35,825 nucleotides of DNA from a virus (Duplodnaviria; Caudoviricetes), in IMG/VR virus record IMGVR_UViG_3300037419_001082, positions 1 to 35,825 of that record; one strand, given 5' to 3'. Positions within the stretch are counted from its first letter, which is position 1, and each line of letters begins with the position of its first letter. Shown here piece by piece: positions 2,272 through 34,918 of this stretch. The notes under the pieces were generated by a model, which was not told the DNA's origin, did no database searches, and saw only the letters and a list, made by a program, of their open reading frames with translations. Both the position numbers and the translations under genes were made by a program.

Positions 2272-2511
2272 ATGAACAAAGCAAATAGAATTACTACTAT
2301 GAAAGATATAGAGATTGGTGATATTGTTGAAGTTGCAATTGAAGAAGGTCATGTGATATTCCGTTACAAATTAAAAGTAACTGATATTGAGATTGGTGAT
2401 GAAAATGAAATCATTGCTTATGGAGAAGGTATTACAAAAGAACATGAAGATTTGGCAGAAGAATTTACACATAGAATTGATTGGTCAAATTTTTACAAGA
2501 TAGTTGGATAA
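2272..2511 (+). CDS. Hypothetical phage protein (SH3/KOW-like IEIGD motif)
   Basis: 79 aa, RBS AGGAGAG; stop lies in the palindromic site. Confidence 0.8.
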   Translation: MNKANRITTMKDIEIGDIVEVAIEEGHVIFRYKLKVTDIEIGDENEIIAYGEGITKEHEDLAEEFTHRIDWSNFYKIVG

Positions 2512-2540
2512 AACTTACATTTTATAAAGGAAGTGGTAAA

Positions 2541-2681
2541 ATGGAAAATGAATATATTTGTTGGGGTTGTTTGAAAGTTTCTAAAAAAAGTGAATTAAAG
2601 AAAGATGACATAAGTGAGTATGTTTGCCCTAAATGTGGAGATGACCACATATCTCAAACTTATAACGCAAGTAATTGTTAA
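2541..2681 (+). CDS. Small zinc-ribbon protein
   Basis: CWGC...CPKC. Start ATG 2541 after RBS AAGGAAGTGG (ORF track 2481..2681). Confidence 0.7.
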   Translation: MENEYICWGCLKVSKKSELKKDDISEYVCPKCGDDHISQTYNASNC

Positions 2682-2736
2682 TAAACATTGAGAGAACAAT
2701 GTAATATAAAATACCGATTTTATCAAAAGGGAGAAG

Positions 2737-2919
2737 TTGATAATAATGAAAAAGATTGAAGAATTGGAACAAAAAATGAATGAAAATTATGATAAAATCA
2801 AAGAAAAAGAAATGAAAATTAAAAGACTACAAGATGAAATTGAAATGTTAAAACATAATCGTAAATATTATCAAGAAGAAATTGACAATATTAAAAGGAG
2901 AGATGGAGATGGGTATTAA
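2737..2919 (+). CDS. Small coiled-coil hypothetical protein
   Basis: Heptad-rich 60 aa, RBS AGGGAG. Confidence 0.7.
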   Translation: MIIMKKIEELEQKMNENYDKIKEKEMKIKRLQDEIEMLKHNRKYYQEEIDNIKRRDGDGY

Positions 2920-3277
2920 TACAAGAGGTTTAATACATTCAGATGTAACAACAGGAGACATTGTAAATGTTTTAATGAATAAATTTAAATTAGACTACAT
3001 TAGTGTTGAAGGAACTCATGCAGATTACTATAAAATCATTACATTTAAATATAAAGGTGAAGATAGAAGATTGTCAGTGTTTGAAGCTATTGACGATATT
3101 GAAAATTATGAACACTTTATTACTAGCAAAGAGATTACAATAATTGATTTTAATTTGTGGGGTAGTGCAATTGAAATAATTGAAAAAATTCTTGAAGGAT
3201 TTGGTGGATATATCATTGAAAGTGATTGTGATGTATATCAAAGTCCTAATCTTAGATATGTTGGTAAAAAGTTTTAA
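2909..3277 (+). CDS. Hypothetical phage protein
   Basis: ORF track 2882..3277; likely start ATG 2909 after GGAGAG. Confidence 0.8.
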   Translation: MGINTRGLIHSDVTTGDIVNVLMNKFKLDYISVEGTHADYYKIITFKYKGEDRRLSVFEAIDDIENYEHFITSKEITIIDFNLWGSAIEIIEKILEGFGGYIIESDCDVYQSPNLRYVGKKF

Positions 3278-3284
3278 AAGTCTA

Positions 3285-3330
3285 TTGACAAAACACTAAC
3301 TCTATGCTATAATAAAAGTATAGAGTTAGT
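3285..3330 (+). promoter_or_regulatory. Sigma-A promoter embedded in an inverted repeat
   Basis: TTGACA 3285-3290, TATAAT 3308-3313; ACTAACTCTAT 3295-3305 / ATAGAGTTAGT 3320-3330. Confidence 0.9.
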
Positions 3331-3350
3331 TAATAAAAGGAGATGTTAAA

Positions 3351-3566
3351 ATGGGAGTATTGAGAGAATTAAAACAAGAATTTGATTTTATTTTATCGGA
3401 TAAATTAATTGAAGCAAGTAGTGGAATTGGTGATGGTGAAGTGTTTCATGCAAAATTAATTCATGGATTTTATGCAATTCTATTTGATGATGGAAGTGAC
3501 ACAGTTACATATACAGTTGATGAAGTAGTTGAATGTCTTGAAGATGGAGATTGGATTATAGTTTAA
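3351..3566 (+). CDS. Hypothetical acidic phage protein
   Basis: 71 aa, RBS AAGGAG. Confidence 0.8.
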   Translation: MGVLRELKQEFDFILSDKLIEASSGIGDGEVFHAKLIHGFYAILFDDGSDTVTYTVDEVVECLEDGDWIIV

Positions 3567-3599
3567 TAAAAGGATTATTTTATTAAAGGAGTGATATGA

Positions 3600-3686
3600 A
3601 TGGTTTTATTTGGATTAATAATGTTTCTTGTTATTTTTAGTGCTTTTAATTTCGGTATGGGATTTTTATGTGGAAGGAAATTTTAA
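3600..3686 (+). CDS. Membrane micropeptide (28 aa, not in ORF track)
   Basis: MVLFGLIMFLVIFSAFNFGMGFLCGRKF; RBS AAGGAGTG; flanked by palindromic sites. Confidence 0.6.
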   Translation: MVLFGLIMFLVIFSAFNFGMGFLCGRKF

Positions 3687-3725
3687 TTTGATAAAATTTA
3701 TCTTTTATTAAAGAGGTGATATTAT

Positions 3726-3977
3726 ATGACAAAAAGAATTGATATATACTCTATTTTATTGCAAAATGGTTATAGATTACCACAACATTCAATGATTATG
3801 GGTAGATGGGAAGCAAGAGCAGATATTTATAAATTTTTAAAAGAAGGTGTAGACCATAATAATTATAAAGATAGTTTTGGCAAAAGTGCTTTAATATCTC
3901 AAATGGCTTCATATAGTGATGAACAATGGTTTAAATTGGTTAGAAGATTATGCAAGAATGGACATTTTAATCAATAA
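3726..3977 (+). CDS. Hypothetical phage protein
   Basis: 83 aa, RBS GAGGTG. Confidence 0.75.
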   Translation: MTKRIDIYSILLQNGYRLPQHSMIMGRWEARADIYKFLKEGVDHNNYKDSFGKSALISQMASYSDEQWFKLVRRLCKNGHFNQ

Positions 3978-4016
3978 TTGATAAAAACATATTCTTTTAT
4001 TAAAGGAGATAGTAGT

Positions 4017-4196
4017 ATGGATAAAGAACAAGTAAAACAAATTGTCAAAGAAATGATTATAGATGAGGAAATTAAATTTTATATCAATATAGACAAAGAT
4101 TCATTTTATGATGGTTTAGAAGTTAAAATTGAAGTGTTTATAGATGGAGAATGTAAACAAACAAATGAAGATAGTGTGTATATGAGAGTTGATTGA
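4017..4196 (+). CDS. Hypothetical acidic phage protein
   Basis: ORF track 3978..4196; start ATG 4017 after AAGGAG. Confidence 0.75.
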   Translation: MDKEQVKQIVKEMIIDEEIKFYINIDKDSFYDGLEVKIEVFIDGECKQTNEDSVYMRVD

Positions 4197-4229
4197 TAAA
4201 AACATTCTTTTATTAAAGGAGATGATAAT

Positions 4230-4394
4230 ATGGTTTGTGAGACATATGAGCAATTTACAGAATTATCAAAAGGCAAAGATGATTTTGATATGACAGTTAC
4301 AACTAGATTATTATTAGAATTGTTTGACCGTAAAGTTGATTTTGCAATATTGAAAAAAATTGAGGACAATTATCTTATAAAAATTTTTGAATAA
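4230..4394 (+). CDS. Small hypothetical protein (54 aa, not in ORF track)
   Basis: MVCETYEQFTELSKGKDDFDM...KIFE; RBS AAGGAG. Confidence 0.7.
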   Translation: MVCETYEQFTELSKGKDDFDMTVTTRLLLELFDRKVDFAILKKIEDNYLIKIFE

Positions 4395-4398
4395 TCTA

Positions 4399-4427
4399 TT
4401 GACAAACAACAAATGATATGGTATAAT
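4399..4427 (+). promoter_or_regulatory. Sigma-A consensus promoter
   Basis: TTGACA N17 TG-TATAAT. Confidence 0.9.
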
Positions 4428-4458
4428 AAAGTATACTTAAAAAAAGGGAGATGTTAAT

Positions 4459-4761
4459 ATGGTTAAAAAATTAAATAAAGATGAAGTTGTTTTTAACATC
4501 AACAAATTATTAGAGCAAATTAATGGTATGTATGATTTTATTGATGAAGCAAATGGTTATTTAGATGAGTTAATAACTTATGGCGATAATGTAATTAATG
4601 CAACTGATAATGATATTGATGATAAACATTATACAACTACTTATGATAGAATTAATGACTTCTACATGAACTTTCCTACTTATAATTGTCTAGATGATTT
4701 CAAAGATTTATTAAATTTATTAAAAGAAGATTTACAGGAAAAAGTAGAGAGAGTAAAATAG
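4459..4761 (+). CDS. Hypothetical acidic helical protein
   Basis: 100 aa, RBS AGGGAG. Confidence 0.8.
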   Translation: MVKKLNKDEVVFNINKLLEQINGMYDFIDEANGYLDELITYGDNVINATDNDIDDKHYTTTYDRINDFYMNFPTYNCLDDFKDLLNLLKEDLQEKVERVK

Positions 4762-4807
4762 TCAAGAGGGAGATTTATTCTCCCTTAAAGAATATTCTAA
4801 AAGTATA

Positions 4808-4836
4808 TTGACAAAAGACTTTGGATATGATATAAT
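4808..4836 (+). promoter_or_regulatory. Sigma-A consensus promoter
   Basis: TTGACA N17 TG-TATAAT. Confidence 0.9.
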
Positions 4837-4862
4837 TAAAGTATAGAAAAGGAGATGTTAAA

Positions 4863-5006
4863 ATGAATGAAGAACAAGTAAATAAATTAATTGATGTGAT
4901 TGACGAACTTGTATATACTATCGAAGAATTACACAGAGGTCAATTAGCAGATTATGAAATTAACAGATTGAAGGAAACTGTAAAATCATTAAAGTGGTCA
5001 ATTTAA
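4863..5006 (+). CDS. Small hypothetical protein (47 aa, not in ORF track)
   Basis: MNEEQVNKLIDVIDELVY...KWSI; RBS AAGGAG. Confidence 0.7.
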   Translation: MNEEQVNKLIDVIDELVYTIEELHRGQLADYEINRLKETVKSLKWSI

Positions 5007-5046
5007 TAAAATATTTGTTTTATCAAATACAAAGGAGATGGTATTG

Positions 5047-5307
5047 ATGAATTTAACAGAAAAAGAAATTAAAATAATGAATATTATAAAAGAAACAATG
5101 GATTCTTATGGAGATGGATTTACAGATGTAATGATTGAAGATTTAATAGCAGAAACAGGATATAAAGTAAATACAGTAAAAGGTGTTTTAGGCAGTTTGG
5201 ATAAGAAAAATTTAATATTCTTTATGGATGTAAATAGAGAATATAATGTTTATGGATTAACTAGAAATGGATTCAAAGCATTAGGTATAGATGTAGATTA
5301 TTTATGA
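5047..5307 (+). CDS. Winged helix-turn-helix DNA-binding protein
   Basis: LTEKEIKIM...IEDLIAETGYKVNTVKGVLGSLDKKNLI...YGLTRNG winged-helix pattern (ORF track 5038..5307). Confidence 0.75.
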   Translation: MNLTEKEIKIMNIIKETMDSYGDGFTDVMIEDLIAETGYKVNTVKGVLGSLDKKNLIFFMDVNREYNVYGLTRNGFKALGIDVDYL

Positions 5308-5340
5308 TTTGATAAAACATTTATTTTATGAGGTGATATT

Positions 5341-5505
5341 ATGAATAATAATGAAATGAAAAATTATGCAATAGATTTAAATGAATTATGGAAGAGTGGT
5401 CAATTTTTAGAATATGCGAAATTCATTAGTAATTTATATGAAAATTATAGTACAGATATTATAATTGACACTTTGAAATATTTAAAAGATATACAGGAGA
5501 GTTAA
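5341..5505 (+). CDS. Small hypothetical protein (54 aa, not in ORF track)
   Basis: MNNNEMKNYAIDLNELWKSG...IQES; RBS GAGGTG fused to the palindromic site. Confidence 0.65.
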   Translation: MNNNEMKNYAIDLNELWKSGQFLEYAKFISNLYENYSTDIIIDTLKYLKDIQES

Positions 5506-5541
5506 GCGATTTGATAAAAGTTAATTTTATGAGGTGATTGA

Positions 5542-5706
5542 ATGGATAATAAAGAGCAACTATTAAAATTATTATCAGAAGCACAAGATAAATTATATGA
5601 CATTGTAATTTATGGTAATACAGATGATTGTCGAGACAAAAATCGTGATTTAAAATGGGAAGCACTTGACCTAATTAAACAAGTGAAGAAATTGATAAAA
5701 AGTTAA
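5542..5706 (+). CDS. Small hypothetical protein (54 aa, not in ORF track)
   Basis: MDNKEQLLKLLSEAQDKLY...LIKS; RBS GAGGTG; stop lies within the core of the next site. Confidence 0.65.
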   Translation: MDNKEQLLKLLSEAQDKLYDIVIYGNTDDCRDKNRDLKWEALDLIKQVKKLIKS

Positions 5707-5728
5707 TTTTATAAAAGGAGTTGGTTAA

Positions 5729-6055
5729 ATGTCGCATACTTATCAAGGAAAAAGAGCAAACATATTTTACAACGGTTTATTTGATAGAAGAGATTATATA
5801 GAAATTATTGACAAAGAAACAGGTGACGAAGTTAAAATTGATGTGGATGATATATTGAATTTTCTTGAAGAAGAATATTATCCACACAATAAATCTAATA
5901 AAGTTGAGTTTAAATATATGGAAATTGGTTTTGATTTCTTGAAAGATAAAGATTATCAAATTTTAGATATTAAGAAATTAAATAGTCTTGGAAAAGAAGG
6001 TTGGGAACTTATGTCAATTGTTAATGGTCAATGTATTTTTAAAAATCGAGTTTGA
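5729..6055 (+). CDS. Hypothetical protein with C-terminal DUF4177-like domain
   Basis: EFKY...LNSLGKEGWELMSI matches the DUF4177 signature LNxLGxEGWEL. Confidence 0.7.
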   Translation: MSHTYQGKRANIFYNGLFDRRDYIEIIDKETGDEVKIDVDDILNFLEEEYYPHNKSNKVEFKYMEIGFDFLKDKDYQILDIKKLNSLGKEGWELMSIVNGQCIFKNRV

Positions 6056-6086
6056 TAAAAAGTTACTTTTATAAAGAGGTGATTAA

Positions 6087-6233
6087 GTGGAGGTAACACT
6101 AAATGAAACAAAAATATCATTAATTTGTGATTCAGATTGGTATAATTTATATGGTAATAAATTATTCTTTTTCAAAAGAGAGTTGATAACAATTCAAGAT
6201 ATGATTAATCTTTATGAAAATAAAAATAGATAA
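6087..6233 (+). CDS. Small hypothetical protein (48 aa, not in ORF track)
   Basis: GTG start after GAGGTG; stop TAA lies in the next palindromic site. Confidence 0.6.
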   Translation: MEVTLNETKISLICDSDWYNLYGNKLFFFKRELITIQDMINLYENKNR

Positions 6234-6261
6234 AAGTCTCGTTTTATGAAAGGATGATTAA

Positions 6262-6513
6262 ATGTTTTACAGAGAAGCAGATATATTTGATTTTTATAAA
6301 GAATATGACCATTTAAAATGGTTGCTAGGCGAAGATGTAATAGAATTAATAGATAATGGAGATAAGCTAAAAGCAGTTAAATTAATAAAAGATAAATTGT
6401 TTTACGATTTATCAAGAAGTAAAAAATTAGTCGATAGATATATGATTTATAAAGAAGCTTATGAAGATTTCAAAAATGATAAAACAGTTTATGTTGAATA
6501 TAAAATTCGATAA
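6262..6513 (+). CDS. Hypothetical protein with ribosomal L7/L12 C-terminal-like helix pair
   Basis: LIDNGDKLKAVKLIKDKLFYDLSRSKKLVD resembles the KIxAIKxxRxxxGxGLKEAKxxVD motif. Confidence 0.55.
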   Translation: MFYREADIFDFYKEYDHLKWLLGEDVIELIDNGDKLKAVKLIKDKLFYDLSRSKKLVDRYMIYKEAYEDFKNDKTVYVEYKIR

Positions 6514-6542
6514 AAGGTTGATTTTATAAAAGAGGTGATTAG

Positions 6543-6692
6543 ATGAAAATAGCTTTATTAGGAGCGTTTATATTTGTTATGGCATTTGCATTAGTAATGT
6601 ATTTTATAATGTTGCATAATCCAATTGCTATATTGTTTATACCATTATTTCTATCAATAATACTAGTACCCATTGGAATGAAAGATATTTGA
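6543..6692 (+). CDS. Membrane micropeptide (49 aa, two hydrophobic segments, not in ORF track)
   Basis: MKIALLGAFIFVMAFALVMYFIMLHNPIAILFIPLFLSIILVPIGMKDI; RBS GAGGTG. Confidence 0.7.
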   Translation: MKIALLGAFIFVMAFALVMYFIMLHNPIAILFIPLFLSIILVPIGMKDI

Positions 6693-6721
6693 TAAAATCT
6701 TACTTTTATTAAAATAATCTA

Positions 6722-6750
6722 TTGACAATACGTATATAATATGTTATACT
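6722..6750 (+). promoter_or_regulatory. Sigma-A promoter
   Basis: TTGACA N17 TG-TATACT. Confidence 0.85.
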
Positions 6751-6779
6751 TATAATATAAAGAATAAGGAGATGATAAT

Positions 6780-7172
6780 ATGGGATTAGATATGTATTTA
6801 ATGGAAGGTAAAAGACAAAATGATGGGAAAATTATGGTTGATTGGAATAGTCAAGAAATTGGATATTGGAGAAAAGCTAATCAGATTCATAATTGGTTTG
6901 TCAAAACTCTTGCAAATGGTGTTGATGAGTGTCAACCAATTCAAGTAACAAAAGAAGATGTGGGGATATTACATGATTTATGTTTAAAAGTGTTAAACAA
7001 TGAAAATCTTGCTTCAAGACTTCTACCTACTCAAAGTGGTTTCTTTTTTGGTGGTACAGAATATGATGAATGGTATTTTGATGATTTAAAACAAACAATT
7101 GAAATTACAAAAAGAGTTTTAAGGGAATTTGATTTTGAAAATAATATATTGATTTATGAAGCAAGTTGGTAA
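6780..7172 (+). CDS. Widely conserved phage hypothetical protein (MGLDMY/YWRKAN family)
   Basis: MGLDMYL...YWRKANQIHNWF...LLPTQSGFFFG..EYDEWY. Confidence 0.85.
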   Translation: MGLDMYLMEGKRQNDGKIMVDWNSQEIGYWRKANQIHNWFVKTLANGVDECQPIQVTKEDVGILHDLCLKVLNNENLASRLLPTQSGFFFGGTEYDEWYFDDLKQTIEITKRVLREFDFENNILIYEASW

Positions 7173-7178
7173 AATCTA

Positions 7179-7223
7179 TTGACAAATCACATATCCTATG
7201 TTATAATAATAACATAGGATATG
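7179..7223 (+). promoter_or_regulatory. Sigma-A promoter overlapped by a 15-bp inverted repeat
   Basis: TTGACA 7179-7184, TATAAT 7202-7207; CATATCCTATGTTAT 7190-7204 / ATAACATAGGATATG 7209-7223. Confidence 0.9.
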
Positions 7224-7250
7224 ATAAACTTATAAAGGAGCGATAATCAA

Positions 7251-7556
7251 ATGGAAAATACAAAATTAATAGCAATTAGTGAATACAATGGTGTTTTTAG
7301 AACAGAAGAGGCTATTATTGAAAAAGAAACTTCAAAACAATTTAAATTAAAAAATACATCGAGACGTATCCTTAATAAGTCTGACATTGGAATTCCATTG
7401 CCTTATGGATTGATGTTTGCCTATGAATATGATGTTAAACGATTAATTTCAGAAGAACTTGAAAAAAGAGTAAGAAGCGTAAACAAAACGATTGAAAATA
7501 AAACAAATGAATTATATAATTTAGAAAAGTCAAGAGAAAGATTTGGTTTAATCTAA
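7251..7556 (+). CDS. Hypothetical phage protein
   Basis: 101 aa, RBS AAGGAG. Confidence 0.8.
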   Translation: MENTKLIAISEYNGVFRTEEAIIEKETSKQFKLKNTSRRILNKSDIGIPLPYGLMFAYEYDVKRLISEELEKRVRSVNKTIENKTNELYNLEKSRERFGLI

Positions 7557-7654
7557 TGAAAAAAGTCAGTGGGAAAGAAATTGTTTTATGGATATCAATT
7601 GGACTTTTATTTGTCGGAATACATGGATTGCTTAAATTTTTAATTTGGCATTGA
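7556..7654 (+). CDS. Possible membrane micropeptide (32 aa)
   Basis: TAATG coupling; MKKVSGKEIVLWISIGLLFVGIHGLLKFLIWH. Confidence 0.5.
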   Translation: MKKVSGKEIVLWISIGLLFVGIHGLLKFLIWH

Positions 7655-7694
7655 CAATTCACTCCCTATATGGTATAATAAAAATATAGGGAGT
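7651..7694 (+). promoter_or_regulatory. Sigma-A promoter embedded in an 11-bp inverted repeat
   Basis: TTGACA 7651-7656, TATAAT 7674-7679; ACTCCCTATAT 7661-7671 / ATATAGGGAGT 7684-7694. Confidence 0.9.
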
Positions 7695-7759
7695 TTGGTT
7701 TGATTAAACAATCTATTGAGAATGGATAAAATAAGAGTTTTATTAAAGGAGAGAAGAGA

Positions 7760-8017
7760 ATGAATAAATTAAAAGAAGTTATTGAGTATGATATTCCAAT
7801 TCAAGGAGAAGAAGCAGTAAAAAAACATAATGAAATGTGTGAAAAAATGTTTGGTGTAGACAGATTCAAACCTCTAAAATCAACAGAAGAACATATAGAT
7901 ATTTTATTCGAAAAATTCTATCATGCCATTCAAAAAGTTGGAGATGATGGGGGTTGGTATGTAGGAGATGGAATTAAAGTTAAGATTGAATTGGAATATG
8001 ATTATGAAGATAAATAA
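7760..8017 (+). CDS. Hypothetical phage protein
   Basis: 85 aa, RBS AAGGAG. Confidence 0.8.
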   Translation: MNKLKEVIEYDIPIQGEEAVKKHNEMCEKMFGVDRFKPLKSTEEHIDILFEKFYHAIQKVGDDGGWYVGDGIKVKIELEYDYEDK

Positions 8018-8028
8018 GGAAAATTAAT

Positions 8029-8112
8029 ATGTTGAAGCTTTTATATTTTATTACATTTTTAGTTTTCTCATTAAACATGTATATGCTTATTTTACTAATT
8101 CAACAAAATTGA
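8029..8112 (+). CDS. Membrane micropeptide (27 aa, not in ORF track)
   Basis: MLKLLYFITFLVFSLNMYMLILLIQQN; RBS AAGGA; stop lies in the palindromic site. Confidence 0.5.
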   Translation: MLKLLYFITFLVFSLNMYMLILLIQQN

Positions 8113-8140
8113 TAAAATTCTGATTTTATGAGGTGATGAT

Positions 8141-8335
8141 ATGGACAGATTAACAAAAGAAGAGGTAAATAAATTAGTTTTAATGATTGAAAATAAAGTA
8201 GGAATAAAATATGACTACAATAAAGATGAATTAGCAGAAGCAGTTGTTTTTGCATATCAGATGGGGAAACAGGTAATAAGCGATGAAGTTGTAAAAGATT
8301 TAGATAAAATGTTGATGAATAGAAAAAAATATTAA
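8141..8335 (+). CDS. Hypothetical phage protein
   Basis: 64 aa, RBS GAGGTG. Confidence 0.75.
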   Translation: MDRLTKEEVNKLVLMIENKVGIKYDYNKDELAEAVVFAYQMGKQVISDEVVKDLDKMLMNRKKY

Positions 8336-8373
8336 TGTAATAAAATAACGGTTTTATCAAAAGGAGCGATTTA

Positions 8374-8619
8374 ATGGAAATTAAAATTGGTGAATATACA
8401 ATCATTGAAGATTTAAAGAATGGTGTATTTGAATGTTTGAGACATGGGCAAGAGTGGAGAGGTTTAATTGGAGACAATATGGTTTTAGCTTTAGTATCAA
8501 AGATTCAAGAGCAACAGGAATTTATTAAAGATATTGCAGAACATAGGATTGAAGATTTTGAAGATTTTCACCCCACAATTGATGTATGGAGTAGAAAAGC
8601 TAAGAAATTATTAATTTGA
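8374..8619 (+). CDS. Hypothetical phage protein
   Basis: 81 aa with LRHGQEWRGLIGDN motif, RBS AAGGAG. Confidence 0.8.
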   Translation: MEIKIGEYTIIEDLKNGVFECLRHGQEWRGLIGDNMVLALVSKIQEQQEFIKDIAEHRIEDFEDFHPTIDVWSRKAKKLLI

Positions 8620-8652
8620 TAAAAGAATAGTTTTATGAAAAGAGGGGAATAG

Positions 8653-8889
8653 ATGAAAGGTGTGTCAATTGATTGGAAATTGATAGAAATATCTAAACAT
8701 TGGGAATTAGAAATTGAAGTTGGAAATGATTGGGGAGAACCACCTTATATTGAAACGAGAAAATATGAAACAAGAGAAGATTTAGATGAAGCTTTAGTTT
8801 ATCAAAGTTATTATGATATTGTATTGAGCATTAAAGAAGTAGTTGAATATGATAGAATTTGGAATTGGGAAAAAGAAGAGGAAAATTAA
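8653..8889 (+). CDS. Hypothetical acidic, Trp-rich phage protein
   Basis: 78 aa, RBS GAGGGG. Confidence 0.75.
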   Translation: MKGVSIDWKLIEISKHWELEIEVGNDWGEPPYIETRKYETREDLDEALVYQSYYDIVLSIKEVVEYDRIWNWEKEEEN

Positions 8890-8907
8890 ATTTTATTAAA
8901 AAATCTA

Positions 8908-8936
8908 TTGACAAAACATAATTAATATGATATAAT
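8908..8936 (+). promoter_or_regulatory. Sigma-A consensus promoter
   Basis: TTGACA N17 TG-TATAAT. Confidence 0.9.
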
Positions 8937-8966
8937 AAAAGTATAAACAAAGGGGAGAGATGTTAC

Positions 8967-9242
8967 ATGTCAGAATTATTAGATAAATTATTATGGAGTA
9001 CAAGTGATTCAGAATGGGAAGATATTATTGATGAGTTAAATGAAGATGAAAAACAAGAATTATTTGATAGTGCAGAAATATATTTAAACGATAAAGAACG
9101 TGACCTTGAGGAAGTTCAAGATAAATTAGGTGATAGTGATTATGAAGATGAATGGGAAGAATTAGATACAGAAGAAGATGATATTTTATCAGACATTGAT
9201 TCACTCACATCATTGATTAGAGTGATTGAAGATTTGATGTAG
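8967..9242 (+). CDS. Extremely acidic small protein (candidate DNA mimic)
   Basis: 91 aa, dominated by D/E; own consensus promoter. Confidence 0.8.
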   Translation: MSELLDKLLWSTSDSEWEDIIDELNEDEKQELFDSAEIYLNDKERDLEEVQDKLGDSDYEDEWEELDTEEDDILSDIDSLTSLIRVIEDLM

Positions 9243-9335
9243 TAGAACAATGTTACGATAATAACAAAATTTTTGTCGAAAAGACCTAGTATACCGTACT
9301 ATCACTCTAACATATACTATTAAGGGGTGATAGTT

Positions 9336-9701
9336 TTGCTTGAAAAACAATCTAATACATTAAGACAAGGAAATATTGGTTTGGGTATTGCAATTTCTTA
9401 TTTTACTATGAGGGGTTGCTATGTTAGTTTACCTTTAAATGATATTCAAGACTATGATTTAATTACTGATTATGGTGATGGTATTCTTAAAAAAGTACAA
9501 GTAAAAACGACAAGGTTCAAAGAAAGAGGAAAACATTACAAAGTTGAATTAATGACAACTAAAAAGCCATTTACTCAAAACAGTTCTGATATTGTTTTTA
9601 TTGTTGATGGTGATGGAGTTCAATATTTAATACCTAGAGATGAAATAAAGGCTAGTAAAGGTATTGTATTGGGTAAAAATTATGAAAAATATATTGTATA
9701 A
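9336..9701 (+). CDS. PD-(D/E)XK endonuclease, group I intron-associated type (PDDEXK_5-like)
   Basis: GxIGxxxAISYF...VSLPLND..DYDLIxD...KVQVKT motif. ORF track 9327..9701; TTG 9336 fits RBS AGGGGTG. Confidence 0.8.
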   Translation: MLEKQSNTLRQGNIGLGIAISYFTMRGCYVSLPLNDIQDYDLITDYGDGILKKVQVKTTRFKERGKHYKVELMTTKKPFTQNSSDIVFIVDGDGVQYLIPRDEIKASKGIVLGKNYEKYIV

Positions 9702-9705
9702 TCTA

Positions 9706-9734
9706 TTGACAATACATAAATAATGTGGTATAAT
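9706..9734 (+). promoter_or_regulatory. Sigma-A consensus promoter
   Basis: TTGACA N17 TG-TATAAT. Confidence 0.9.
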
Positions 9735-9792
9735 TGTATTATAGAGATGAGTAATAGACAACTAATGTTCACTAAAAAGGAGAAATGAAAAA

Positions 9793-10014
9793 ATGCACAT
9801 TAAAAGAGGAAATGGACAAATAGTTATGATGGAAACGATTAATTGCGTTAATTATTTTGATATGAAACATATAGGTAATGAGCTTAAAGAAATAGGTAAA
9901 AATGAGTATATATGCGAAAAATGTAATGCAATTATGACTTTCAAAGAACCTGTTTTAGTTCAAGATGAAAACGGAAGATTAAGAATGAAAGTGGTTGCAG
10001 AAGTAAAACAATAG
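9793..10014 (+). CDS. Small putative Zn-binding protein
   Basis: C...H...CEKC, 73 aa. Confidence 0.65.
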   Translation: MHIKRGNGQIVMMETINCVNYFDMKHIGNELKEIGKNEYICEKCNAIMTFKEPVLVQDENGRLRMKVVAEVKQ

Positions 10015-10080
10015 TACGCATTACGATAATAATGTGGATTTGATAAAAACTGAATTTTATCAAAAGGGGGAGATATTGAA

Positions 10081-10371
10081 ATGGAGAATTTAGTTTTAGA
10101 GAGAGTTATTAATGGTGGGATTCAAAGAGGATTTAAATTTGAAAACGGTTTTGGTGCAAGTGTAGTTCGACATTCTTTCTCATATGGTGGAGACAGAGGA
10201 CTTTGGGAATTAGCAGTGGTTAAATTTAGAGATGAAGATTGGGATAGTTCTTCATTAACATATATGACTGATATTACAGATGATGTAATTGGATATTTAA
10301 CATGGATAGAAGTAGAAATATTATTAGATAAAATTAAAAATTTGGATGAATTTGGTCAAGCAAAGGAGTAG
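10081..10371 (+). CDS. Conserved phage hypothetical protein
   Basis: FKFENGFGASVV...SYGG..GLWELAV...TDITDDVIGYLT motif typical of a widespread phage family. Confidence 0.85.
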   Translation: MENLVLERVINGGIQRGFKFENGFGASVVRHSFSYGGDRGLWELAVVKFRDEDWDSSSLTYMTDITDDVIGYLTWIEVEILLDKIKNLDEFGQAKE

Positions 10372-11951: not shown

Positions 11952-12893
11952 ATGAGTAATATTCAAAAAGAAAGAGGCATTATTGATTCAAATAAACAAA
12001 TGTTTATCAAACAATTTGACAATGAATTGACAAAAACATATTACAGTAGATTGTTTGAGTCTGATTTATTTGAATTTGAACAAAAAGTAGGGAAAGATGT
12101 ATTAGATTTTACAGTCAATGAATTAATGGATTTTATTAAAGAATTAAATACAACATCATATAATGCAGAAGTTAGTGGTCGAATTTTAAGCAGTTATTTC
12201 AACTATTGTATTGCAAATCATATTATCAATATTGATAATCCTTTGAATGATATATCACAAAAAGAATTGAGAAAATTAGGAAAACAAACAAGTTTCTTTT
12301 CAGAAGAGGATATTGATGATATAATTGGAAGCTTGGTCAATCCACAAGATTCTGTAATTATCAGATTATTATTCGAAGGATTTAATGGAAAAGAATTTAG
12401 TGAGATAACATCATTGACTAAACATGATATTGATGTTTTAAATAATGAAATTAAAGGTAAAAAAGTTACTGATAAATTAATGCAGTTAACAGGAGAAGCA
12501 TTTAAACAAAAAGAGTATTATAAGAAAAATGGTACTGATTTAATTGAAAATGTAGACTTTAAATTAAATATGGTTATGAATGATTATATTATTAGAAATA
12601 CAATTACTAAAACAGATGTAAATGATAAACAAGTTGATAAGAGTGTTGTTTTTAGAAGAATAAAAATGATTAGCGAAGTTCTAGAAATTGATGGATTTAC
12701 ATCAACATCTATTTATAAGAGTGGTCAATTATGGTATGCAAATAAAATAATGATTGAAAATAATAAAACTAAAATGGATAAAGATGTGTATAACAGAGTA
12801 ATGAAAAGATTTGGCTTAAATAATTATTATGCAATTAGAGAGTATTTAAATGATAAAAATATAAATGAACTGTATAACAGGAAGGAGATTTAA
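11952..12893 (+). CDS. MrpR/YopR-like phage repressor with tyrosine-recombinase fold
   Basis: N-terminal SAM-like region (FEQKVGKDVLDFT..EL) and LVNPQDxxIIxLLFEG..GKEFSEIxxL motif as in the SPbeta MrpR family. Catalytic R and HxxR are replaced. ORF track 11922. Confidence 0.75.
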   Translation: MSNIQKERGIIDSNKQMFIKQFDNELTKTYYSRLFESDLFEFEQKVGKDVLDFTVNELMDFIKELNTTSYNAEVSGRILSSYFNYCIANHIINIDNPLNDISQKELRKLGKQTSFFSEEDIDDIIGSLVNPQDSVIIRLLFEGFNGKEFSEITSLTKHDIDVLNNEIKGKKVTDKLMQLTGEAFKQKEYYKKNGTDLIENVDFKLNMVMNDYIIRNTITKTDVNDKQVDKSVVFRRIKMISEVLEIDGFTSTSIYKSGQLWYANKIMIENNKTKMDKDVYNRVMKRFGLNNYYAIREYLNDKNINELYNRKEI

Positions 12894-15005: not shown

Positions 15006-16061
15006 ATGAGTTTTTTAAATAAGATTGAACCTAATGTACCTAAAGTTGCTCTAGAAAGCTATTTTATGGTACTTCATGCACCTTCAAAATTTGGTAAATC
15101 AACATTTGCTTATGAGTTAGCTAAAAAGCATTATAAAGGCGATTTAAGTAAAATGCTTTTAATTGCTACTGAAAGTGGATTTAATGCTTTAAATGGTGTT
15201 TATGCAGTTAAAGTAAATGATTTTAAAGATGGTGACGAAGATTTAGATACAAGAGGATTTGTTGAAGTTGTTGATGAATTAATCGAAAACAAAAAAGATG
15301 TTCCTTTTAAAATGATTGTAATTGATACTTTATCGGCTCTCGAAGATTTAGCAGAAAAAGAAGTTATTCGTCAACAAAAACGAAAAGGTAAGCAAATTTC
15401 AACAATCGGTGAATTAGCTTATGGTATTGGTTATAACCTTGTTGAAGGATTGGTTGATGAACAAATTACACGATTACGTCAAGCAGGATATGGTGTATTA
15501 GTAATTGCTCACTCTAAAATGAAAAAAGTAGAATTGCAAGATGGTACATCATATGAATTTGCTACATTAAATGCTTTAGGAAAAGTAATGGATGTTATCA
15601 CAAGAGAAGCAGATTTTATTATTTATGGGGATATTACTACTACTCATAATGAAGGTGTTGTTTCATCTAAGCGTGAATTAGTTTTCCGTAGTGCAAATGG
15701 ACATTTATGTGGTACACGATTCAAGCATATGCCTAATCGAATTGATTTTGACATTGATTTATTCCTAGAAACATTTGAAGAAGCAGTTCAAGGGAATTTT
15801 GATGAAGAGATTAATATTGATGAAATGCGTGAAGAAGAATTACAGGCTAGAGAAGATAAGGCAGATAAATTTTTAGAACGCAATTCAGTTCCTAAAACAG
15901 ATGTAATTGCAGAAATTACAGAAGTGATTAGTGCAATGAAGAAAACTCAAAAATTAGAAGCTAAAAAATTAGCAGAATCTACACTTGGTACGATGAATTT
16001 TGATGAAGTTACAGATACATCATTACTAGTTAAATTCCTAGAAGCAGTAAAACAAATTTAA
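15006..16061 (+). CDS. AAA_24 family ATPase (Sak4/YorG-like recombination-replication protein)
   Basis: Walker A APSKFGKST, Walker B IVIDT, GxGY and IAH motifs. Confidence 0.85.
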   Translation: MSFLNKIEPNVPKVALESYFMVLHAPSKFGKSTFAYELAKKHYKGDLSKMLLIATESGFNALNGVYAVKVNDFKDGDEDLDTRGFVEVVDELIENKKDVPFKMIVIDTLSALEDLAEKEVIRQQKRKGKQISTIGELAYGIGYNLVEGLVDEQITRLRQAGYGVLVIAHSKMKKVELQDGTSYEFATLNALGKVMDVITREADFIIYGDITTTHNEGVVSSKRELVFRSANGHLCGTRFKHMPNRIDFDIDLFLETFEEAVQGNFDEEINIDEMREEELQAREDKADKFLERNSVPKTDVIAEITEVISAMKKTQKLEAKKLAESTLGTMNFDEVTDTSLLVKFLEAVKQI

Positions 16062-21757: not shown

Positions 21758-23107
21758 ATGGATTTAAAATATGGTGTCGGTGATAAAGTAGTTCTAAGAG
21801 ATGATTTAGTTGTTCGTGAAATGTATGGGAACATTCATTTTCTTGATTCAATGGGAAAAGCAGTTGGGAAACCACTAACAGTTAAAAAAATTGTAAGTGA
21901 TGAGTGTGGCAAATATTATCGTTTTGAAGAATGTTCTTATGGGTTTAGTTATTCAGAAGAAATGGTTAAAGGATTATTTGAAGAAAAACAAGAAATGGAG
22001 AGTGTAAAAATGAGTAAGTATCAAGTTGGGGATAAAGTAGTAGTTCGTAGTGATTTAGAAAATAAAGATTATGGTGGTCTTTATGCAATGCCTAGTATGG
22101 TTGAATTAGCAGGAGAAACTGTTACAATCACAAACTATGATAGTGTTGCCAATGATTATCGTATTTCAGAAGATAGTGGTGATTGGTTTTGGAATAATGA
22201 AATGTTTGAAGGTTTAGCAGATGTGAAACCAACAACAATTGTATCAACACAAGAACCGATATCAAAATATCGAGTTGGAGATAAAGTTGTAGTAGCAGAT
22301 TTAGACCATAGTGGCTCTTATAATGGTTGGGGAGTAGCAAGTACCATGTTAGATTATATTGGTAAAACAGTAACAATCAAACATGTTAGTCTTAATAGTG
22401 GTTATTCTACTTATCACCTTGAAGAAGTTGGATTCACTTGGACAGATGAAATGTTTGAAGGTTTAGCACCTCAAAAATTAACACAAGTAACTCCACCATT
22501 CAAAATTGGTGATAAAGTAACAGTTCGTGTTGATTTATCGGAAGATGAAGTATATGGTGGTGTTGATGTAACAGAAGAAATGGTTCAATTAGCAGGACAA
22601 ATTGTTACAATCACAGATTTATTAGGTGGAAATGATTATGAAATAAAAGAAGATGGTTATGAATTTATGTGGTCTACTTCTATGTTTGAAGAAGGGGTTA
22701 GTCGAGTTCAAACAACAATTAATGATTATTTAGATGAAGAAATTGAAGAAATTGATGATGAGGATTACGAAGAAGATTATGAAGATTATGATTGGGATGA
22801 TGAACCAACTCAACCTTCACATTCAGAGATTGAAGAAGTTACTCAATCAATGACAAAAACTACTTCTACTCCATCTGAAACTATTAATTATTGGGGTAAA
22901 GGTGCAGGATATGGAATTTACATTAGTCGAGTAATTTACAACAATCCTGTTACGGTAATGTTCTACCGAGATGAAATTGGTGGACGAGAATATAAAGTTG
23001 TTGCAAAAGCACAACATGGAGATGTTTATAACAAAGAAAAAGGATTTGAGGTTGCGTTATTGAAAGCAGTAGTTCGTTCTGCTAAACGTAAACTTAAAAA
23101 ATATTAA
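21758..23107 (+). CDS. Tandem-repeat protein (4 KOW/SH3-like repeats, acidic linker, conserved phage C-terminal domain)
   Basis: Four (Y/F)xVGDKVVVRxDL...M...GxxVTI...W/YxxEMFE repeats; C-terminal VIYNNPVTV...D.YNKEKG domain. Confidence 0.85.
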   Translation: MDLKYGVGDKVVLRDDLVVREMYGNIHFLDSMGKAVGKPLTVKKIVSDECGKYYRFEECSYGFSYSEEMVKGLFEEKQEMESVKMSKYQVGDKVVVRSDLENKDYGGLYAMPSMVELAGETVTITNYDSVANDYRISEDSGDWFWNNEMFEGLADVKPTTIVSTQEPISKYRVGDKVVVADLDHSGSYNGWGVASTMLDYIGKTVTIKHVSLNSGYSTYHLEEVGFTWTDEMFEGLAPQKLTQVTPPFKIGDKVTVRVDLSEDEVYGGVDVTEEMVQLAGQIVTITDLLGGNDYEIKEDGYEFMWSTSMFEEGVSRVQTTINDYLDEEIEEIDDEDYEEDYEDYDWDDEPTQPSHSEIEEVTQSMTKTTSTPSETINYWGKGAGYGIYISRVIYNNPVTVMFYRDEIGGREYKVVAKAQHGDVYNKEKGFEVALLKAVVRSAKRKLKKY

Positions 23108-23154: not shown

Positions 23155-23343
23155 ATGGATGATATGTTAAAAGATAGAATTGATAAGTTGCAAAAATGTT
23201 TAGAAAATGTTCAATCAGAATTTAATAACGAAAATTATTATAATTTACTTGGTGCATTAGATAGATTGAGAGATTGTACAGAATCGGCAATCTATTTATT
23301 ATTAACAGATGAAGAAAAAATTGATAGAAATAAAATTTTATGA
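23155..23343 (+). CDS. Hypothetical phage protein
   Basis: ORF track 23122..23343; ATG 23155 after GGGTGA. Confidence 0.65.
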   Translation: MDDMLKDRIDKLQKCLENVQSEFNNENYYNLLGALDRLRDCTESAIYLLLTDEEKIDRNKIL

Positions 23344-26638: not shown

Positions 26639-27466
26639 ATGAGTAAATTTAAAATTGGTTTAATTACATTTGGAGTAGCATTTGTTTTAGGTAGTATTTA
26701 TGTAATTGGTGGATTAACACATGTTGGAATGGGTTCAGTTGGTATTGTTAAACATATGGATGGAAGTATCACACAAATTAGAAATGGTTGGAGTTGGACA
26801 GGTTGGGGAACTTCAACTCAAGAATACGAAACTTACACTCAATCACTTAAAAAATCATGGTCAGTTGGTACAGGCGACCAACAGGAGTTACCTGTAAAAA
26901 CTAACTTAACATGGGAAATTTCAACAAAAGACAAAGATGTTGAAACAGTTTATCTATCAGTTGGTGGTAAAGAGATTGAATATCTTAGAGATAATATTGT
27001 GAACACTACTATGCAAAATGTAGCAAATAGAATTACACATAAATATTCATGGAATGATATCAAAGGTGCAAAACAAGGAAGTATTTCTGATGAAATTGAA
27101 GCAGAGTTAAAACATGATTTAGCACTACAAGGTATTATTGTAAAATCATTTGGTTTCTCACATGTTGGAAGTCCTCAAGGTATGCAACAATCACAACAAC
27201 AATTGGCAAGTTCTGAATTAAATATTAAACAAGCAGAAGCAATGCAACAAAAAGCTAAGATTGATAATGAAACTAAAATTTTAAATGCTCAAGCACAGGC
27301 ACAAGCGGATTTAATTCAAGCACAAGGTAAGGCTAAAGCAAATGCAGTCCTAAAACAATCATTAACTCCACAAATTGTTGAATTAGAAAAAATCAAAAAA
27401 TGGAATGGTGTTAATAGTACAACGGTTGTTGGTGGAAATTCTTCAACAATGGTTAATGTGAAATAA
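26639..27466 (+). CDS. SPFH/Band 7 (prohibitin-like) membrane protein
   Basis: N-terminal TM, VGIV...GW, C-terminal AQAQA..AKANA.L..SLTPQ.VE...I.KWNG. Confidence 0.88.
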   Translation: MSKFKIGLITFGVAFVLGSIYVIGGLTHVGMGSVGIVKHMDGSITQIRNGWSWTGWGTSTQEYETYTQSLKKSWSVGTGDQQELPVKTNLTWEISTKDKDVETVYLSVGGKEIEYLRDNIVNTTMQNVANRITHKYSWNDIKGAKQGSISDEIEAELKHDLALQGIIVKSFGFSHVGSPQGMQQSQQQLASSELNIKQAEAMQQKAKIDNETKILNAQAQAQADLIQAQGKAKANAVLKQSLTPQIVELEKIKKWNGVNSTTVVGGNSSTMVNVK

Positions 27467-32757: not shown

Positions 32758-34140
32758 ATGCATAAAGGAGTTAAATTGAGAGATAATGTTGGTTACAAAA
32801 CAATTTGTAAATGTGGACATACTGATGTATGGAATAGTTATTATTCGATAAGAAGTTGTACCAAATGTGGTAATGGAACATTTATTGACATGACAAATAA
32901 ACAAGTTTCTTATGTTCCAAAATTAGAATGTCTTGAAAAGACAAATACAATGTTTAAATTAAAACGCATTAACACATCTTATCGACTTTCTGATGATGGT
33001 AATGTTACATATAAGGAAAATTCAAGTCAAACATTATACTATAATTTAATTACGAAAGAAATTAAGTTGTTTAAAGAAGATGAAGAGGTTGTTCAAGATT
33101 TAGGTTATTATATCAACTTATTTTTCAAAGGTATTCAATCACATGAATTCATAAGTGAAATAAGTACAACTCAAAACAAAAGAATGTATGAAGAAGCAAA
33201 TCGTTTATGGAATGGTGCAAGGGGTTATACATCTGACTCTAAAGGAATTTACAATTTTTTATCAAAACTCAAAAATGAACAAGCATTTCAAATTTTAGCA
33301 AATTGTGGATTCTATTCATTATACAATTGCTTTAGAGGTAGTTATGTTGATAAAGAAGCTACAAAACCACATGAAATATTAGGATTACCAAAAGTGGTGT
33401 TAAAATATATAAAAGATGTAGAGTTTGGATATTATGACTTGCAAAAAATACAAAAAATCTGTACACATATTAATGGTAATAGTTTGAAGTTATTATTTGA
33501 AATTGTCAAAGAGGAATCTCAAATAAGAGATTTAGTCAGTAATGTTGATTATATCTTAGACCTTTATGAGAATTATGGATATAAAGATATCAAGAAATTG
33601 GCATTATATGTTTTCAGAGAAACAAAGTTAACACAAGGAATTGAATATCCTAGTACAACATTAACTAATTTACGAGATTATGCAAGAATGTCATCTGAAA
33701 TGGGAATAGATTATGAAAAATATCCAAAATCATTAAAGAAAGCCCATGATTTAACTATACTAGATTATAGATTAGTAAAAAGTGAGATTGATAAGAAAAA
33801 TTTTGTGAAAGCAGTTGAAGAAGAAGAATATAGGGAATTAGAGTTTAAAGATAAAGAATATGTGATTATTACACCACAAGAACCAAAAGACTTAATTGAT
33901 GAAGGTGAAAAATTAAGTCATTGCGTTTCATCTTATGTAAAAGATGTAATTGCTAAAAAATGTAAAATCTTATTTATGAGAGACAAGGAAAATGTGGACA
34001 AGCCTTTAGTTACTGTTGAAGTTCGTGGAGAAAATATTCGACAAGTAAGAGGATTTGGTAATAGAAAAGTAGTTGGGCAAGAATTAGAATTTATTAGTAA
34101 GTGGGCAAATAAAAAGAATTTAGTTCTTTCAGTTCACTAA
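32758..34140 (+). CDS. PcfJ domain-containing protein with N-terminal Zn ribbon
   Basis: CKCG...CTKCG; LRDYARM...YPKSLKKAHD...DLIDEGEKLSHCVSSY...ILFMR...P..TVEV....IRQVRGFGN. Confidence 0.88.
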   Translation: MHKGVKLRDNVGYKTICKCGHTDVWNSYYSIRSCTKCGNGTFIDMTNKQVSYVPKLECLEKTNTMFKLKRINTSYRLSDDGNVTYKENSSQTLYYNLITKEIKLFKEDEEVVQDLGYYINLFFKGIQSHEFISEISTTQNKRMYEEANRLWNGARGYTSDSKGIYNFLSKLKNEQAFQILANCGFYSLYNCFRGSYVDKEATKPHEILGLPKVVLKYIKDVEFGYYDLQKIQKICTHINGNSLKLLFEIVKEESQIRDLVSNVDYILDLYENYGYKDIKKLALYVFRETKLTQGIEYPSTTLTNLRDYARMSSEMGIDYEKYPKSLKKAHDLTILDYRLVKSEIDKKNFVKAVEEEEYRELEFKDKEYVIITPQEPKDLIDEGEKLSHCVSSYVKDVIAKKCKILFMRDKENVDKPLVTVEVRGENIRQVRGFGNRKVVGQELEFISKWANKKNLVLSVH

Positions 34141-34165
34141 TATAATAAATAATGAGAGGTATTAT

Positions 34166-34918
34166 ATGAAGAAAATATATGATATTAAAGAAATTACAAA
34201 ACAAGAAGCGTTGGAGATGGTACAAAAATACCATTACTCCAACATTCTACCTCAATTAAATAAGAAGTTTATGGGATTTTATTTAAATGATGAATTAGTA
34301 GGAGTTGTTACTTTAGGTTGGGGAACAAGACCTGTGCATACAATTAAAAAATTATTTCCTAGTCTTGACTCAAAAGATTATTATGAAATTGGTCGCATGT
34401 GTATGACAGAAGAAATGGAACGTAATAGTGAAAGCCAAATGCTATCACAATTGATTAAATATATCAAGCAAAATATGAGAGAGATTAAAGTTCTTTTTAC
34501 ATGGGCAGATGGAATGTTGGGCAAAGTTGGATATGTGTATCAAGCATCCAACTTTTTATTTGCAGGTCATTCAGATACAGATTGTTATTTTAAAGATGGT
34601 GCAAAGCTTCATCCTCGACAAACAAAATCTATTTTTGGAACAGAAGGAGATAAACGTAAATCTATTAGACCAACAAAAGAACAGATGAAAGAATATGGCA
34701 TTGACCATTATCAAGGTCGTCAGTTTAGATATGTTTATTTTTTATGTGATAAAAGAGAAATTAAGAGGTTAAAAGATGAATGTTTGGTAGAATTAAATAT
34801 TAATTATCCAAAAGAAAAAGATTTGTATTGGAGAAAAAAGAATGAATTGGGTAAATGGGTTATATCAGAAAGACCATTGTATGATGTTAATGCAAATGAT
34901 GTAAAATTTAATCAATAA
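34166..34918 (+). CDS. Mom-family (GNAT-like) DNA adenine modification protein
   Basis: A..MV.KYHYS, GFY...LVGVVTLG, YEIGRM, NSESQ.LS, TWADG..G.VGYVYQASNF. Confidence 0.8.
   Translation: MKKIYDIKEITKQEALEMVQKYHYSNILPQLNKKFMGFYLNDELVGVVTLGWGTRPVHTIKKLFPSLDSKDYYEIGRMCMTEEMERNSESQMLSQLIKYIKQNMREIKVLFTWADGMLGKVGYVYQASNFLFAGHSDTDCYFKDGAKLHPRQTKSIFGTEGDKRKSIRPTKEQMKEYGIDHYQGRQFRYVYFLCDKREIKRLKDECLVELNINYPKEKDLYWRKKNELGKWVISERPLYDVNANDVKFNQ

Follow-up and report, generated by a model that had tools for sequence, protein, structure and literature searches.

The DNA considered here (35,825 nucleotides of the IMG/VR virus record IMGVR_UViG_3300037419_001082; hereafter the window, meaning that whole stretch) comes from a large Bacillota siphovirus of the SPbeta/Tsamsa-like kind; its record is one contig alone, a fragment of the genome. 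The window carries an array of small accessory genes, and between these genes stand copies of a short palindrome, ATAAAA-N6-TTTTAT, each with its own six-letter centre (Table 1). As judged from genome comparison, related phages swap genes at these sites, which have an 11-6-11 layout and distinct centres. The sites are probably addressed crossover points, at which a predicted tyrosine recombinase would join only equal centres.

A search for ATAAAA-N5..8-TTTTAT returned 21 matches in the window against a mean of 0.73 in shuffled sequence (maximum 3 over 100 shuffles), which fits the estimate of less than one chance copy per window given in a preliminary description of this DNA. When exact arms were counted at every spacing from 0 to 15, 19 copies had six bases between the arms, one had five, one had eight and one had none, and no other spacing occurred. 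Each arm is about 11 bp long; its inner TAAAA is invariant and its outer bases vary more, and the whole is an 11-6-11 palindrome. As had been proposed, this is the architecture of tyrosine-recombinase sites, in which two arms of about 11 bp face each other across a centre of 6-8 bp.

All 19 starts and centres listed in the preliminary description proved exact. Their confinement to positions 2508-10060 did not stand: a second patch of minigenes contains two more exact copies (23451 and 23668) and one with a single mismatch (23324), and the element therefore extends outside that range. The replication and nrd genes themselves hold no exact copy, as claimed, where the labels helicase, primase, RecJ and nrd come from translations read by eye and from PBC2 gene order, not from profiles. 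A Shine-Dalgarno-like word follows the right arm at 18 of the 19 listed sites, the exception being 6692. On a hand-made gene list, in which two entries are one base off, an upstream stop codon ends within -9 to +3 nucleotides of the site start at 15 of the 19. The same list only partly bears out the view of each unit as ribosome-binding site, open reading frame and site, since only 13 of the 18 intervals consist of a single promoterless gene, and the remaining five hold two to four genes, four of them with promoters. The motif observation itself holds, and the element is real and widespread.

Table 1. Sites, minigenes and larger genes located in the window (positions in nucleotides)
Feature	Positions	Strand	Remark
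Small accessory-gene array	2272..10371	+	proteins of about 28-130 amino acids, almost all with no Pfam family; driven by repeated consensus promoters
Site, centre CTTACA	2508..2525		exact copy
Site, centre TACCGA	2706..2723		exact copy
Site, centre GGATTA	3566..3583		exact copy
Site, centre TTTATC	3691..3708		different sequence 4 nucleotides beyond in contigs of at least 4 runs
Off-length site, 8-base centre ACATATTC	3981..4000		two-base-insertion twin of site 4196
Site, centre ACATTC	4196..4213		six-base twin of site 3981
Site, centre TATTTG	5006..5023		centre common to vB_BcoS-136, flanks unrelated
Site, centre CATTTA	5312..5329		exact copy
Off-length site, 5-base centre GTTAA	5514..5530		one-base-deletion twin of site 5695
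Site, centre AGTTAA	5695..5712		six-base twin of site 5514
Site, centre AGTTAC	6055..6072		5 of 6 centre bases as in site 5695
Site, centre GTCTCG	6230..6247		29 nucleotides same as a vB_BcoS-136 site, surroundings unrelated
Site, centre GGTTGA	6510..6527		exact copy
Site, centre TCTTAC	6692..6709		followed by a promoter, not a ribosome-binding site
Site, centre TAAGAG	7726..7743		exact copy
Site, centre TTCTGA	8112..8129		exact copy
Site, centre TAACGG	8340..8357		exact copy
Site, centre GAATAG	8619..8636		exact copy
Site, centre ACTGAA	10043..10060		centre common to vB_BcoS-136 and Tsamsa
MrpR-family protein	11952..12893	+	recombinase fold, catalytic residues absent; not the sites' enzyme
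Sak4-like single-strand annealing protein	15006..16061	+	profile match; enzyme of the main rival explanation
One-mismatch site	23324..23341		start of second minigene patch
Hydrophobic minigene, 30 codons	23354..23446	+	contig G024 has a different minigene instead
Site, centre TGGCAA	23451..23468		exact copy absent from the preliminary description
Site, centre GCAAAA	23668..23685		exact copy absent from the preliminary description

Sites, centres and breakpoints in related phages

A scan of 23 related genomes, whole or nearly so (two more were added later), recovered the same 11-6-11 palindrome in 21 of them. TAAAA-N6-TTTTA occurs there in 13-44 copies, 34 in SPbeta, against 0-9 copies for any other spacing. 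The copies are mainly intergenic, densest among accessory genes and single across the conserved region. One lies inside an open reading frame of 3000 codons, at an equivalent place in Tsamsa (121913), PBC2 (122140) and FADO (111639), where the centres differ; its size and position suggest that this reading frame is the tape-measure gene.

Centres common to two genomes keep their order and orientation. With order scored cyclically and each pair of genomes in its better orientation, this was so in 960 of 961 cases in the SPbeta group and in every case of three further sets (313/313, 65/65 and 162/162). The sequence between the same two centres differed from genome to genome without any relation for 23 of the 65 SPbeta-group slots and 9 of the 26 Tsamsa-group slots, and one slot with fixed centres had six unrelated fillings among seven genomes. 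Tsamsa (23 sites) and PBC2 (25 sites) have eight identical centres, though their fourfold-degenerate sites are 52% identical.

Within a genome, no centre was found twice in any of 22 genomes, nor in two more. Across eight lineages with 198 sites, some of which have centres in common, there were no identical centre pairs where 4.2 were expected (p 0.015), 26 pairs alike in five of six bases where 54.5 were expected, and no palindromic centres against 5.8. Avoidance of duplicate, near-duplicate and palindromic centres is expected if recombination requires matching centres and duplicates carry a cost. As a separate observation, two B. subtilis phages, FADO (51093-53130) and SPbetaL7 (84091-84626), have three successive centres in common, identically ordered, at a mean protein identity of 39%, a hint of cross-genus exchange.

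Gene starts coincided with alignment breakpoints more often where a site was present than where it was not. The counts were 61/76 with a site against 194/757 without in the SPbeta group, 39/60 against 262/1068 in the Tsamsa group, and 17/45 against 107/469 in the PBC2 group, in a test that imposes no requirement of a site in the partner genome. Where two sites from different genomes had homology on one flank only, 256 of 319 pairs in the SPbeta group and 57 of 76 pairs in the Tsamsa and PBC2 groups together nevertheless agreed in all six centre bases, against about 1% at random, although such pairs have a common history and do not count as independent. Identity in these pairs decays in the outer half of the far arm. 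The identical run beyond the centre had a median of 6-7 nucleotides where chance gives 6, and a minority of runs were longer. Dependence on centre identity and asymmetry of the centre are thus present as a comparative signature only. The idea that gene gain, loss and replacement map to the sites is borne out both in relatives and in strains of the window's phage.

Eleven sequencing runs contain the phage, all of them soil or rhizosphere metagenomes. One contig, G024, is 99.7% identical to the window across 9.3 kb, and the two align without interruption except at the minigene that sites 23324 and 23451 enclose; both alternative minigenes of this slot are hydrophobic and may be distant kin. Metagenome contigs of at least four runs (X6, X7, X8, X9) have a loose end at 3712, 4 nucleotides past site 3691, and one contig joins 3712 to 5005, a weak joint with a shorter side of 28 nucleotides. 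Among the contig ends listed, and in qualitative terms, several fall at sites 5006, 6510, 6692, 8112, 8340 and 8619, and others elsewhere. In several of the joints the sides are short, and a repeated promoter or the site takes part.

Close relatives of the main array were absent from the viral contigs, where L002 was the sole match, and a metagenome scan gave two unrelated matches. The array and the matching region of vB_BcoS-136 have three exact centres in common (0.16 expected, p 0.0003, the best of 12 comparisons), with unrelated flanks at both of the two inspected. Collinearity of the window's centres over the whole length of 13 genomes was also tried and was not significant, and the exact-centre count with vB_BcoS-136 alone stands.

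The only off-length copies in the window lie one gene upstream of six-base twins: ACATATTC precedes ACATTC, and GTTAA precedes AGTTAA, which is followed in turn by AGTTAC. Over all genomes, 28 off-length sites have a regular site nearby, and three of them were insertion or deletion twins of that neighbour, against 0.06 expected; two of these three are the window's own, and prompted the test. Adjacent centres alike in five of six bases numbered 6 against 1.6 expected (p 0.004), and neighbour similarity of centres in the window alone gave p 0.14. Because the off-length copies twin the next site, these data suggest site duplication as the origin of new slots. A gene would enter bringing a duplicate site with it, and the slot would become fixed once the centre of one copy mutates.

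Mechanism, candidate enzymes and rival explanations

The proposal of addressed crossover builds on what is observed, namely sites at gene boundaries, six-base spacing, unique and non-palindromic centres, conserved order, and unrelated genes between the same centres. Two related genomes would meet in one cell, either by co-infection or as phage and prophage. A first crossover at a common centre would join them and a second, at another common centre, would resolve them; such a double crossover would swap the intervening genes and leave order and centres unchanged. Because each centre is distinct from the others in its genome, the genes enclosed by adjacent sites would be neither deleted nor inverted. 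A fuller version is more tentative. It sees a phage-encoded system of addressed recombination, with an orphan tyrosine recombinase and dozens of sites, in which centres would serve as cross-genus addresses, exchange would be allele-like and slot for slot, and new addresses would be born by duplication and mutation.

The strongest candidates for the enzyme are intact recombinases of the YomM family (or the YopP family) from complete relatives; a host Xer protein may also be responsible. In complete relatives both families keep R, K, H-x-x-R/K, H and Y. We take yomM to be the name of the YomM-like family gene; the yopP name is that of the SPbeta record. Neither gene is in the window, a genome fragment. 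A YomM-like gene was present in 12 of 12 site-rich and in 1 of 7 site-poor viral contigs, three of the 12 matches being weak (E 1e-7 to 1e-8). The YomM-family gene has a site at about 1.1 kb in the Tsamsa, PBC2 and FADO groups, and at 10-408 nucleotides in eight of nine SPbeta-group phages. Profiles of both families match XerA, XerD and XerH structures, with an archaeal XerC-like protein scoring better (E 6.7e-17) than XerH (E 2.8e-6). Two YomM-like alleles, about 65% identical, segregate among SPbeta-like phages, and in most of these phages a site lies 10-30 nucleotides from the gene end. The role of the extra tyrosine recombinases in SPbeta-type phages is described as open in the available part of a published account (PMC13245101).

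The protein encoded at 11952, put forward in the preliminary description for recombination assays, was rejected as the enzyme of the sites, for it belongs to the MrpR family and lacks the catalytic arginine and histidine motifs. According to the accessible portions of two reports, MrpR is a repressor in which recombinase activity has been lost (PMC10516654; bioRxiv 10.1101/2025.11.27.690993). Among named phages, the best tblastn matches of the window are Tsamsa/PBC2-like, with SPbeta-like phages lower down. A strong site lies 100-180 nucleotides upstream of the MrpR-like gene in Tsamsa (34803), PBC2 (32699) and FADO (28188), and none is found at that place in the window.

Several observations weigh against addressed crossover. 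Only about 14-18% of the SPbeta-group breakpoint clusters fall at sites, and for the Tsamsa and PBC2 groups the share is 1-6%. Identity runs at least 9 nucleotides beyond the centre in about 23% of the SPbeta-group pairs with one homologous flank against 6% at random, and in 43% against 8% in the Tsamsa set. The left end of the break in G024 falls past the start codon and its right end 8 nucleotides short of the arm, which fits homology-driven exchange too. The order of the window's centres was not significantly collinear with the matching regions of 12 named phages (p 0.12-0.96). With respect to the enzyme, YopP-like genes co-occur with the sites about equally well, and co-occurrence therefore marks lineage, not enzyme; the site-poor contigs are mainly fragments. 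Lactococcus phage 949 and Brevibacillus phage Sundance hold intact recombinases of both families, yet have 7 and 0 exact sites, respectively, and a de novo palindrome search in these two phages found no clear replacement motif. No circle joint between sites is among the joints listed for contigs of seven runs, although contigs show presence only and drop rare forms. Finally, the model does not explain how an unrelated gene gains the correct centre at both ends.

With regard to Sundance, four degenerate, asymmetric versions of the site (score at least 14) with common outer sequence lie at 27186, 91243, 123245 and 127455, one of them 1 kb from the YomM-like gene of this phage.

The main rival, which we consider unlikely, holds that the sites are conserved because they bind a non-catalytic protein, architectural or regulatory, and that genes are swapped by Sak4-like annealing at 16-28 bp of microhomology, comparable to PeSL cassettes or linkers. 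A Sak4-like gene is present in the window, a minority of breaks run past the core, the bulk of breakpoints lie away from sites, and in population contigs repeated promoters attract joints too. Microhomology does not readily explain a centre conserved above neutral sites, nor an identical run past the centre so close to random, and it leaves the avoidance of palindromic and near-identical centres unexplained.

It is also unlikely that these are true recombination sites serving primarily replication, in the building or resolution of multimers on sister molecules, with exchange as a by-product. Strong sites do occur throughout the conserved part of the genome, including the one inside the 3000-codon reading frame in the Tsamsa, PBC2 and FADO groups, and the available part of one report links Xer-like genes of Kirov to dimer resolution of a plasmid-prophage (PMC10454425). 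Dimer resolution would need one site, however, and density peaks among accessory genes. A regular spacing of 10-12 kb between backbone sites, noted by eye in the Tsamsa group, was rejected, as spacing over whole genomes was no more regular than random (significant in 0 of 20 genomes, p 0.15-0.98).

An operator array, or an RNA hairpin regulating the downstream minigene, would account for the ribosome-binding site that follows 18 of 19 sites and for the hairpin between arms in the predicted fold of six out of ten sites tested. We nevertheless regard both, which had been raised as alternatives, as highly improbable. Sites within 10 nucleotides of a consensus promoter number 1/19 in the window, 0/23 in Tsamsa, 0/25 in PBC2, 1/33 in FADO and 1/22 in BcoS-136; folding is weak, with z below -2 at two of ten sites; Rfam gave no matches; and in relatives many strong sites have no neighbouring ribosome-binding site. 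A loop needs no strict six-base length, and centres that are unique and conserved are expected neither of a loop nor of an operator spacer.

Still less credible is an integron-like array, in which single-gene circles would excise between neighbouring sites, reinsert elsewhere and reshuffle the order. Excision and reshuffling, as first envisaged for this DNA, do not agree with the fixed order of common centres, with neighbouring centres that differ or with the absence of identical pairs; the missing circle joint also counts against them, weakly given that contigs drop rare forms, and the window, from a genome fragment, has no integron integrase. What may survive of this reading is slot birth by duplication around one gene, since 13 of 18 intervals are one promoterless gene and the twins suggest that insertion duplicates the site. 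We give equally little weight to loxP-like sites distributed so that headful genomes circularise through a site in their terminal redundancy, which unique centres would suit, as would headful packaging from a pac site in SPbeta-like phages (accessible part of bioRxiv 10.1101/2021.11.22.469490), when the Tsamsa group has site gaps of 30-35 kb and Kirov has 24 sites, yet fixed 284-bp terminal repeats (available part of PMC10454425).

Other genes of the window

The first 12 kb of the window hold 12 perfect and four near-perfect promoters of the sigma-70 type, all on the + strand between 425 and 11917. This promoter-dense stretch resembles a host-takeover region, and similar promoters appear again downstream. 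Among the related genomes fetched at that point, tblastn gave matches for just three of 33 window minigenes. Profile searches of the window proteins identified Sak4-like, sigma-factor, PcfJ and Mom-like genes; the PcfJ-like gene is followed by a Mom-family DNA modification gene (32758-34918).

A PD-(D/E)XK endonuclease (Pfam PF11645; 9327-9701), possibly a mobile homing nuclease, lies inside the minigene array. An identical 12-mer stands at 9253-9264 and 10021-10032, 3' of two stop codons and on either side of this endonuclease gene; allowing one mismatch, its frequency was not above chance. Ahead of the second minigene patch, a protein of 449 amino acids (21758-23107) contains four internal repeats, assigned to PHROG families of unassigned function, and an acidic stretch.

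Relation to known systems

Phage mosaicism at gene boundaries is commonly attributed to illegitimate or homology-driven recombination. An addressed system, if true, would give such mosaicism a dedicated mechanism and supply orthogonal recombination sites of natural origin. The importance of the site lies in several directions. As a defined element with 34 copies in the model phage SPbeta, it predicts gene-swap positions, and the extra tyrosine recombinases that these phages encode may have it as their substrate. Its slots mark the locations of candidates for host takeover and anti-defence, and the site family could provide many recombination sites that do not cross-react. The question is open to direct testing in B. 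subtilis. A search of the open-access literature, outside which most subscription papers fall, found no description of the element; it is apparently undescribed, and widespread in SPbeta/Tsamsa-type phages.

The window is like an integron in that strong promoters precede a series of small genes that lack a promoter of their own and have a site after each. The attC site of integrons is a long hairpin, whereas the phage site is short, symmetric and of a double-strand type, its order is not reshuffled, and no IntI is encoded in the window fragment. The window shares with the MrpR/SroF system an MrpR-family protein. In the accessible portions of the reports, MrpR is a repressor, inactive and monomeric, whose target boxes are located in promoter regions (PMC10516654; bioRxiv 10.1101/2025.11.27.690993), and the SroF box as printed in the available part of the latter is unlike the phage palindrome.

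The closest phage precedent is given by the PeSL cassettes of T4-type phages, repeats in hypervariable early regions that mark gene insertion, deletion and replacement, according to the available part of PMC2839356. In both cases repeated elements mark gene turnover. PeSL cassettes are units of promoter and terminator, with mini-circles between nearby copies; the phage sites described here are not promoters, and identical copies are avoided.

In arm sequence, the phage site resembles those of XerH/difH and XerS/difSL. The difH left arm (AGTTATGAAAA) and the difSL arm (TTTCCGAAAA) are about 11 bp long with AAAA beside the centre (available part of PMC5357621), and the inner 5 bp are read specifically, the outer bases and centre loosely (accessible part of PMC5241119). 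The logo of the phage site is likewise specific inside and looser outside. Those systems each have one chromosomal site for dimer resolution, whereas the phages have many sites with distinct centres.

Extensive shuffling is reportedly described in one study of dif modules, unlike the fixed order of the phage sites. By analogy, the site would nonetheless work most like the pdif modules of Acinetobacter plasmids, without being a member of that class, since its arms are symmetric and the XerCD core is absent. The pdif core reads ATAA-centre-TTAT and has distinct XerC and XerD arms (available part of PMC11705084), whereas the phage arms have inner TAAAA and TTTTA. The phage sites also differ in number, 13-44 per genome of 110-170 kb, and in an order that is fixed across genera. 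In the accessible part of the same report, many 11-6-11 pdif/xrs sites, served by host XerC/XerD, flank accessory genes on Rep_3 plasmids, and as the flanking centres differ, excision is disfavoured; compatible centres give rise to inter-plasmid cointegrates that are then resolved, and deletion between flanking sites was not seen (PMC11705084). In both systems accessory genes lie between sites of unequal centre and are swapped between molecules, the phage case being known from comparison.

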